The notes beneath the pieces are model-generated. The model saw only the letters and a program-made list of their open reading frames with translations, searched no databases and was not told where the DNA came from. A DNA stretch of 64,000 nucleotides from Thermoplasmata archaeon (lineage in GTDB: Archaea > Thermoplasmatota > Thermoplasmata > Lutacidiplasmatales > UBA184): positions 9,088 to 73,087 of the forward strand of contig JASHWW010000005.1 in assembly GCA_030043855.1 (NCBI GenBank), read 5' to 3'. Position 1 is the first letter of the stretch, and each line of letters begins with the position of its first letter. Below are positions 31,803 through 31,908 of this stretch, piece after piece. A program made the position numbers and the translations under genes.

Positions 31803-31908
31803 GCCCTGGTAGTCTAGTGGTCTAGGATCTAGGTCTGTCGAGCCTGGGACTCGGGTTCGAAGGCGGCCGGGGGCGCTCCCCCCGGCCCCGGAACTCCCGA
31901 CCAGGGCG
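31803..31908 (+). tRNA. tRNA-Asp (anticodon GUC) with a 33-nt intron at a non-canonical T-loop position (about 59/60)
   Basis: Manual fold. Acceptor GCCCTGG/CCAGGGC is 7 perfect bp, discriminator G. D-arm GTCT-AGTGGTCTA-GGAT includes G18G19. Anticodon stem TAGGT/GCCTG with loop CTGTCGA (U33, G34U35C36, G37). Variable loop is 4 nt. T-stem TCGGG/CCCGA. The T-loop TTCGAA|T is interrupted by GGCGGCCGGGGGCGCTCCCCCCGGCCCCGGAAC (31862-31894). Mature length 73 nt. CCA is not encoded. Confidence 0.7.

Follow-up and report, generated by a model that had tools for sequence, protein, structure and literature searches.

A tRNA-Asp(GUC) Gene Interrupted in the T-Loop

Analysis of a 64-kb stretch of DNA with a G+C content of 71% (hereafter, the window) indicates, with a probability that we put at roughly 90%, that positions 31803–31908 represent a genuine archaeal tRNA-Asp(GUC) gene from a high-GC lineage of Thermoplasmata. 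The T-loop of this gene is interrupted between tRNA positions 59 and 60 by a 33-nt intron of the type removed by the bulge-helix-bulge (BHB) splicing endonuclease, and its excision is predicted from the sequence. The coordinates of the gene, of its putative promoter and of the proposed splicing motif are listed in Table 1.

Table 1. Features of the interrupted tRNA-Asp(GUC) gene and its upstream region (window coordinates).
Feature	Position	Strand	Description	Basis or prediction
Promoter-like block	31764–31776	+	BRE-like GCAAG (31764–31768) and TATA-like TTTGATAG (31769–31776)	−39 to −27 from the tRNA 5′ end
5′ exon	31803–31861	+	tRNA positions 1–59	Sequence, ARAGORN; identical or nearly so in 30 clade sequences
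Anticodon	31837–31839	+	GTC, within the 5′ exon	
BHB motif, 5′ half	31856–31862	+	Central-helix strand T54–G57 (31856–31859); bulge A58, A59, intron G1 (31860–31862)	Predicted cut after 31861
Intron	31862–31894	+	33 nt between tRNA positions 59 and 60, GGCGGCCGGGGGCGCTCCCCCCGGCCCCGGAAC	
Inner helix (h′) and loop	31863–31888	+	G31863:C31888, bulged C31864, 9 bp (31865–31873 with 31879–31887), loop CGCUC (31874–31878)	RNAfold
BHB motif, 3′ half	31889–31895	+	Central-helix strand CGGA (31889–31892); bulge A, C, T60 (31893–31895)	Predicted cut after 31894
3′ exon	31895–31908	+	tRNA positions 60–73: T60, CCCGA, CCAGGGC, G73	

The 5′ exon comprises the acceptor strand GCCCTGG, the D-arm, the anticodon arm (TAGGT-CTGTCGA-GCCTG), a 4-nt variable loop and the T-stem strand TCGGG, and ends within the T-loop at T54–A59 (TTCGAA). 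Within the 3′ exon, CCCGA is perfectly complementary to the 5′ strand of the T-stem, and CCAGGGC to that of the acceptor stem. CCA is absent from the gene, the bases that follow G73 being CCT. When joined in silico, the exons give a 73-nt molecule that ARAGORN identifies as tRNA-Asp(gtc), with 7/7 pairs in the acceptor stem and 5/5 in the T-stem, all of them Watson-Crick, and a 5-bp anticodon stem containing two G-U pairs. The spliced sequence thus has the GUC anticodon, U33, a purine at position 37 (G37) and the discriminator G73 of a tRNA-Asp(GUC) cloverleaf. Removal of the intron restores the T-loop TTCGAAT, and the predicted exon-exon junction is formed by GGGTTCGAA joined to TCCCGACC.

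The initial annotation of this region had proposed a tRNA-Asp(GUC) with a 33-nt T-loop insert at 31862–31894, exons folding into a perfect cloverleaf and an insert able to form a strong helix. The sequence agrees with that description base for base, ARAGORN confirmed the cloverleaf on the spliced molecule, and the helix was found as the 9-bp GC hairpin given in Table 1. The same annotation regarded the gene as the sole tRNA in the window, and in these 64 kb ARAGORN indeed found no other, while a crude T-arm scan yielded no convincing candidate. According to our calculation, the chance that 14 nt completing 12 base pairs would occur 20–50 nt downstream is about 1e-6 per site. Given this expectation and the recurrence of the arrangement in about 109 archaeal genomes among the matches listed (see below), the interrupted gene is more than a chance configuration.

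Bacterial-type group I tRNA introns, which reside in the anticodon loop, are built around a ribozyme core that measures roughly 200 nt or more. A self-splicing intron of this kind was excluded for the 33-nt insert, which lies in the T-loop and has no Rfam intron match. The insert could also be pictured as a remnant left when a mobile element or a virus integrated at the tRNA 3′ end and duplicated the att site; tRNA 3′ halves commonly serve as integration sites in archaea (discussed in PMC4033280). Such an origin has, in our estimation, a negligible probability. The tRNA 3′ end is not duplicated anywhere in the 64-kb window, where its 20-mer has no match at up to three mismatches and its 14-mer gives only scattered matches with two mismatches. 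Housekeeping genes surround the tRNA, no integrase lies nearby, and the insert itself is just 33 nt long, structured, and located at the same site in relatives.

Relatives Carrying the Same Intron

For comparison, one genome per GTDB species was scanned with a pattern consisting of CGGGTTCRAA, 20–50 unspecified bases and TCCCGNCCNGGGCG, which returns only genes with an insert. The scan yielded at least 120 loci. Among the matches listed, 109 are archaeal tRNA-Asp(GTC) genes with the insert at exactly 59/60. A further 11 of the 120 listed matches are bacterial and have no tRNA 5′ half; these were treated as probable chance hits, of which about 17 would be expected by our estimate from the information content of the pattern.

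At least 29 species-level loci from metagenome-assembled genomes (MAGs) of a “Thermoplasmata archaeon” clade carry the interrupted gene and, together with the window, make up 30 distinct versions of it. Among the matches listed, two records of the clade bear other titles, one Thermoplasmatales and one “bacterium”. In the 29 listed MAG loci, the 5′ exons are identical or nearly identical to that of the window, and the inserts are 28–33 nt long. The gene order PFK, IF-2B-family protein, tRNA-Asp, UppS and thermosome was seen, at least partly, in most of these loci. Among them, the thermosome is 85–92% identical, and the identity of UppS is only 62–80%, so the intron has persisted through a long divergence. 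An NCBI MAG contig (L001; GCA_030048935.1) has a tRNA and a UppS identical to those of the window. Based on the adjoining thermosome gene and on the synteny with MAGs titled Thermoplasmata (all relatives but one), the assignment of the host to Archaea, within a high-GC Thermoplasmata clade, is supported. The names of the clade MAGs suggest soil and groundwater samples.

The record titled “bacterium isolate clean3188” (L017; DAIDCO010000070.1) has the intron-bearing tRNA-Asp of the clade together with PFK, IF-2B and UppS neighbours, and its taxonomic label is probably wrong. Several further observations concern the neighbouring genes. The thermosome (Cpn60/TCP-1) of the window is a single 554-aa ORF (32943–34607), and its counterpart in GCA_030048935.1 (L001:1162-2825) is annotated as two separate genes (112 and 394 aa), whose segments show tblastn identities of 100% and 99.8%; a frameshift or assembly error in the latter is likely. 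The longest ORFs of PFK (29169–30428) and of the IF-2B-family protein (29924–31447) overlap by about 500 nt. In the latter ORF, the IF-2B domain does not begin until residue 216, so the true start codon is probably located much further downstream.

An insert at 59/60 of tRNA-Asp was also found in DPANN archaea and Nitrososphaeria. The initial annotation had considered the intron lineage-informative. This holds within Thermoplasmata, where every recovered sequence of the clade has the intron; because an insert at this position of tRNA-Asp is widespread in DPANN and Nitrososphaeria, the intron is not unique to one lineage. Many of the DPANN-type tRNA-Asp genes contain, besides the 59/60 insert, a second one right after CTGTCG/A (37/38). 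Examples are L003:4955-5014, L019, L024, L043 and L068, which come from Woese- and Nanoarchaeota and from records labelled “uncultured Methanosarcinales”, a label that is possibly not reliable in the case of binchicken MAGs. In the Nitrososphaeria matches (e.g., L005, L009 and L045), the 52 nt upstream contain no acceptor 5′ strand, a hint that their tRNA-Asp has an additional interruption in its 5′ part.

The clade loci have a G+C content of 64–74%, and those recovered with their 5′ flank contain an AT-rich (G/C)AAGGTTCATAG-like block at the same distance upstream of the tRNA as in the window. Its conservation in genomes so rich in G+C suggests a putative BRE/TATA promoter. A second short element, TTAG/ATAG, is found at −16 to −13 (31787–31790 in the window) and at the same offsets in the clade loci; it looks like a proximal promoter element.

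These comparisons bear on the idea that the gene is dead, inactivated by the 33-nt insertion, with another tRNA-Asp gene in use. As 64 kb of the genome were examined, a second tRNA-Asp could be located elsewhere. We nevertheless consider a dead gene very improbable. The interrupted form is kept in the 29 listed species-level relatives, and for most of them the shared locus can be recognised; the promoter-like block is conserved upstream; and the exons and the intron hairpin show compensatory changes, with the central helix and the geometry of the splice sites conserved throughout (see below). Moreover, when metagenomes were scanned for the junction as it would read without the intron, all 17 matches came from other lineages of lower GC, whose 5′ exon type differs from that of the clade. 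Two of the metagenome contigs (L122 and L128; 43% GC) carry an intronless tRNA-Asp with an anticodon arm and a 3′ half close to those of the clade and a different D-arm. These genes may come from a lower-GC relative without the intron and, if so, would be useful for dating the gain of the intron.

Predicted BHB Motif at the Exon-Intron Junctions

In the canonical archaeal splicing motif, the splice sites lie in two 3-nt bulges, one on either side of a 4-bp helix, and in introns at 37/38 the last six bases of the exon supply four helix and two bulge bases (PMC4090602). The splice-site geometry at 59/60 was placed according to this description. In the window, a central helix of 4 bp can form between the T-loop and the intron (U54:A, U55:G, C56:G and G57:C), with 3-nt bulges on opposite strands (A58-A59-G(i1) and A(i32)-C(i33)-U60). 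The splice sites fall after the second base of each bulge, and cuts at these sites restore a normal tRNA. Both flanking helices of the strict hBHBh′ type are present, h being the 5-bp T-stem and h′ the imperfect inner helix, which starts next to the 5′ bulge with one conserved G:C pair, continues through a 1-nt bulge and ends in 9 bp. This imperfection makes the 5′ splice site depart further from the canonical form than the 3′ site does.

Folding of the T-arm together with the intron, a check proposed in the initial annotation, demonstrated that the full motif can be written at the exon-intron boundaries with an energy of −29.3 kcal/mol, compared with −33.2 kcal/mol for the minimum free energy (MFE) structure of the window sequence. 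In the RNAfold optimum of the window, G1G2 of the intron pairs with C27C28, leaving a symmetric internal loop, and RNAalifold also prefers this pairing. The BHB fold is the MFE structure in three relatives (L002, L064 and L074). Neither the cloverleaf nor the BHB central helix was recovered as the optimum by single-sequence or alignment folding, and the comparative pairing counts were therefore used as the main argument. RNAalifold did match the two exons to each other in the acceptor stem and the T-stem despite the insert between them, and it predicted the intron hairpin de novo. According to these models, the motif can form with both bulges, though thermodynamics alone does not pick it.

The 30 clade sequences (29 listed MAG loci and the window) contain 30 different introns, with a mean identity of 66% for the introns and 96% for the exons. 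All four central-helix pairs are retained in every one of them: the intron strand reads CGGA in 15 sequences, CGAA in 13, and CGGG and CGAG in one each. Every variant pairs with TTCG, and the variants are G↔A changes opposite U only. For a more detailed count, 12 sequences of 106 nt were placed in a gap-free alignment and the pairs of the cloverleaf-plus-BHB structure were scored. Of the cells in this alignment, 97.9% are paired, a share that falls to 31–60% once the partners are shifted by one, two or three columns; the central helix is 100% paired. Nine pairs have changed on both sides, and seven of these are among the ten pairs of the inner helix. None of 500 shuffles reached these pairing and double-change values. 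Compensatory changes in the exons involve 26:44 and the anticodon stem. Judging by these comparisons, the structure of the interrupted gene is under selection.

The central helix was further examined across phyla. The 110 archaeal tRNA-Asp genes compared, all with an insert at 59/60, show G:C (46), A:T (45), G:T (3) or a mismatch (16) between T-loop position 57 and intron position −6; the central helix has its full 4 bp in 92 of these genes and is 3 bp long in the other 18. This cross-phylum covariation is the best evidence for the predicted central helix.

The one rival with real weight accepts the intron and places it in a relaxed motif, for example with G1G2 paired to C27C28 and a symmetric internal loop, which would need an endonuclease of broad specificity evolved or acquired by the clade. 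Apart from being preferred by RNAfold and RNAalifold, this alternative pairing is complete in 25 of the 30 clade sequences. It fails in the other five, whereas the central helix is complementary in all 30, with the restricted G↔A variation described above, and covaries across phyla. Archaeal endonucleases, furthermore, recognise the BHB itself and not the tRNA body (PMC4090602), and a strict motif at 59/60 should thus be cleavable by a narrow-specificity enzyme as well. A relaxed presentation is, on balance, unlikely. The relaxed BHB classes (hBH, HBh′ and BHL), in which one bulge is missing or disrupted, were also considered; both 3-nt bulges can be formed here, and a fold without the central helix is competitive. 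As both bulges can form, the modelled motif looks close to the strict hBHBh′ type, and the label “relaxed” is not needed. Of the earlier proposal of a relaxed BHB substrate, the BHB part is supported by the formable motif and its covariation, and the relaxed part is not required, given that both bulges and the 4-bp helix can form.

Performance of tRNA Finders on the Interrupted Gene

On the unspliced window, ARAGORN reports a poor continuous 74-nt model at 31803–31876, whose acceptor stem contains a G.G mismatch and a G-U pair and whose T-stem has only two Watson-Crick pairs. The intron options of the program (-i, -i0,60 and -ps90) change nothing, because they allow introns in the anticodon loop only. 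When a 191-nt stretch of the unspliced DNA was compared with Rfam, the tRNA model RF00005 aligned end to end over 31803–31875 with a score of 24.3 bits, below its threshold of 29, and an E-value of 0.0035. The Rfam scan of the whole window gave no tRNA match at gathering thresholds or at E ≤ 1. Two sub-threshold matches to other families were observed elsewhere in the window: the C/D-box sRNA sR44 at 3602–3654 (+ strand; 23.8 bits; E-value, 0.13), with CCGA in place of the D box CUGA, and a c-di-GMP-II-GAG aptamer at 6203–6249 (− strand; 28.7 bits; E-value, 0.21). Both are probably chance matches in GC-rich coding sequence.

Taken at face value, the ARAGORN and Rfam alignments could mean that the gene is an uninterrupted 74-nt tRNA-Asp and that the complementary segment downstream is coincidental. 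Besides its mispaired stems and sub-threshold score, such a tRNA would have as its 3′ end bases that belong to freely varying intron sequence in the relatives, whereas the 3′ exon of the interrupted gene is invariant. In addition, no such model is reported by ARAGORN in 17 of the 29 listed relatives. The initial annotation had named a better-fitting continuous tRNA model as grounds for refutation; ARAGORN offered none but this mismatch-bearing one, and the comparative data effectively refute the continuous reading.

In the 29 listed relatives, ARAGORN missed the interrupted gene in 17 cases and placed its 3′ end wrongly in the other 12 (the test set included such orthologous loci as L013:2206-2310 and L017:6819-6924). 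The expectation that default predictors would easily miss this gene was thus borne out, and the failure of both ARAGORN and the Rfam tRNA model on it is the main practical point of this work. MAG annotations produced by intron-naive tools may lack or truncate tRNA-Asp in the high-GC Thermoplasmata clade, and, as we see it, MAGs of the clade may seem to be without tRNA-Asp in quality checks based on tRNA counts.

Proposed Processing of the tRNA-Asp Precursor

We infer that the gene would be transcribed from the archaeal BRE/TATA-like promoter located about 30 nt upstream, and that the precursor would then be cleaved and ligated. U54–G57 would pair with CGGA of the intron to give the 4-bp central helix, flanked by the T-stem on one side and by the GC hairpin of the intron on the other, with A58, A59 and intron G1 in one 3-nt bulge and intron A32, C33 and U60 in the other. 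As the motif predicts, EndA would cut after the second base of each bulge, that is, after 31861 and 31894. By analogy with established archaeal tRNA splicing, a ligase of the RtcB type would join the exons, restoring the normal T-loop UUCGAAU. Since the gene does not encode CCA, this sequence would be added after splicing. Genes for EndA and RtcB were not found among the genes neighbouring the tRNA.

Comparison with Known Archaeal tRNA Introns

Position 59/60 is a documented BHB site (PMC3239211; PMC4090602; PMC3218864) and is included among the non-canonical tRNA intron positions listed in reviews (PMC4090602). The closest parallels are the 59/60 introns of ARMAN-2 (Ca. Micrarchaeum), which are found in tRNA-Cys(GCA) with a relaxed hBH motif and in tRNA-Pro(GGG) with a strict hBHBh′ motif (Fujishima et al. 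2011, PMC3239211). The ε2 endonuclease of ARMAN-2 cuts the tRNA-Cys substrate in vitro (PMC3239211; PMC3488258). Like the intron described here, those of ARMAN-2 interrupt the T-loop at exactly 59/60 with a BHB-type motif, and the strict form of the tRNA-Pro motif corresponds to the one that can be formed in tRNA-Asp. The differences lie in the tRNAs concerned (Pro and Cys as opposed to Asp), in the host (DPANN as opposed to Thermoplasmata), in the broad specificity of the ε2 enzyme, and in the relaxed hBH motif of tRNA-Cys, whereas both bulges can form in tRNA-Asp.

With canonical introns at 37/38, such as those of tRNA-Trp and tRNA-Met in Euryarchaeota, the tRNA-Asp intron shares a predicted architecture of a 4-bp helix, two 3-nt bulges and cuts after the second bulge base (PMC4090602), and its removal would presumably depend on EndA and RtcB as well. 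In canonical precursors, the central helix is built from anticodon-loop bases and the anticodon loop is absent; in the tRNA-Asp precursor, the helix would be built from U54–G57 and the T-loop is absent. Circularly permuted tRNA genes in Thermofilum pendens and Cyanidioschyzon merolae likewise have a BHB motif at the 59/60 junction (Chan et al. 2011, PMC3218864). There, the 3′ half of the tRNA lies upstream of the 5′ half, unlike the normal order and simple intron of the gene studied here. These permuted genes show that BHB motifs recur at the T-loop sequence.

Within Euryarchaeota, introns have been described as occurring at the canonical position only, matching endonucleases of the α4 or α′2 type (PMC4090602). 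The only characterised enzyme of Thermoplasmata, EndA of T. acidophilum, is an α′2 endonuclease of narrow specificity (PMC6379350). The tRNAscan-SE 2.0 survey counted 25 non-canonical introns in 144 euryarchaeal genomes, including one in five genomes of Thermoplasmatales and six in three genomes of Methanomassiliicoccales (Table S7, PMC8450103). The introns of these two orders resemble the present one in having non-canonical positions in the same class-level lineage. Table S7 gives counts only, without tRNAs or positions, whereas the intron reported here can be assigned to its tRNA and site in an uncultured high-GC clade represented by MAGs only. In our literature search, no paper was found on a 59/60 intron of tRNA-Asp in Thermoplasmata, and a “position 59” match in PMC5069720 was accidental.

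Since 59/60 is a published non-canonical site and non-canonical introns have already been counted in Thermoplasmatales and Methanomassiliicoccales, both the kind and the position of this intron are already known in archaea, and the high-GC Thermoplasmata case is an added instance. The known picture of archaeal tRNA splicing is left unchanged by it. As a lineage marker, the intron can help to place genome fragments: it is present in every clade sequence recovered by the scan, which finds insert-bearing genes only.

It is conceivable, although we hold it doubtful, that Thermoplasmata, DPANN and Nitrososphaeria share an old, position-homologous 59/60 intron of tRNA-Asp, or else that this site has been hit repeatedly because one half of a BHB motif is already provided by the universal T-loop sequence UUCRAA. 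On this reading, the fixation of the intron throughout the clade would mean either that the narrow α′2 enzyme handles T-loop introns in vivo or that a broader enzyme has evolved or been acquired. If so, either outcome for the enzyme would revise the rule that introns of Euryarchaeota occur only at 37/38 because of the enzyme type.

A strict-looking BHB motif retained at 59/60 in relatives of Thermoplasma offers a natural test of whether it is the position of the intron or the shape of the motif that limits the narrow-specificity enzymes.
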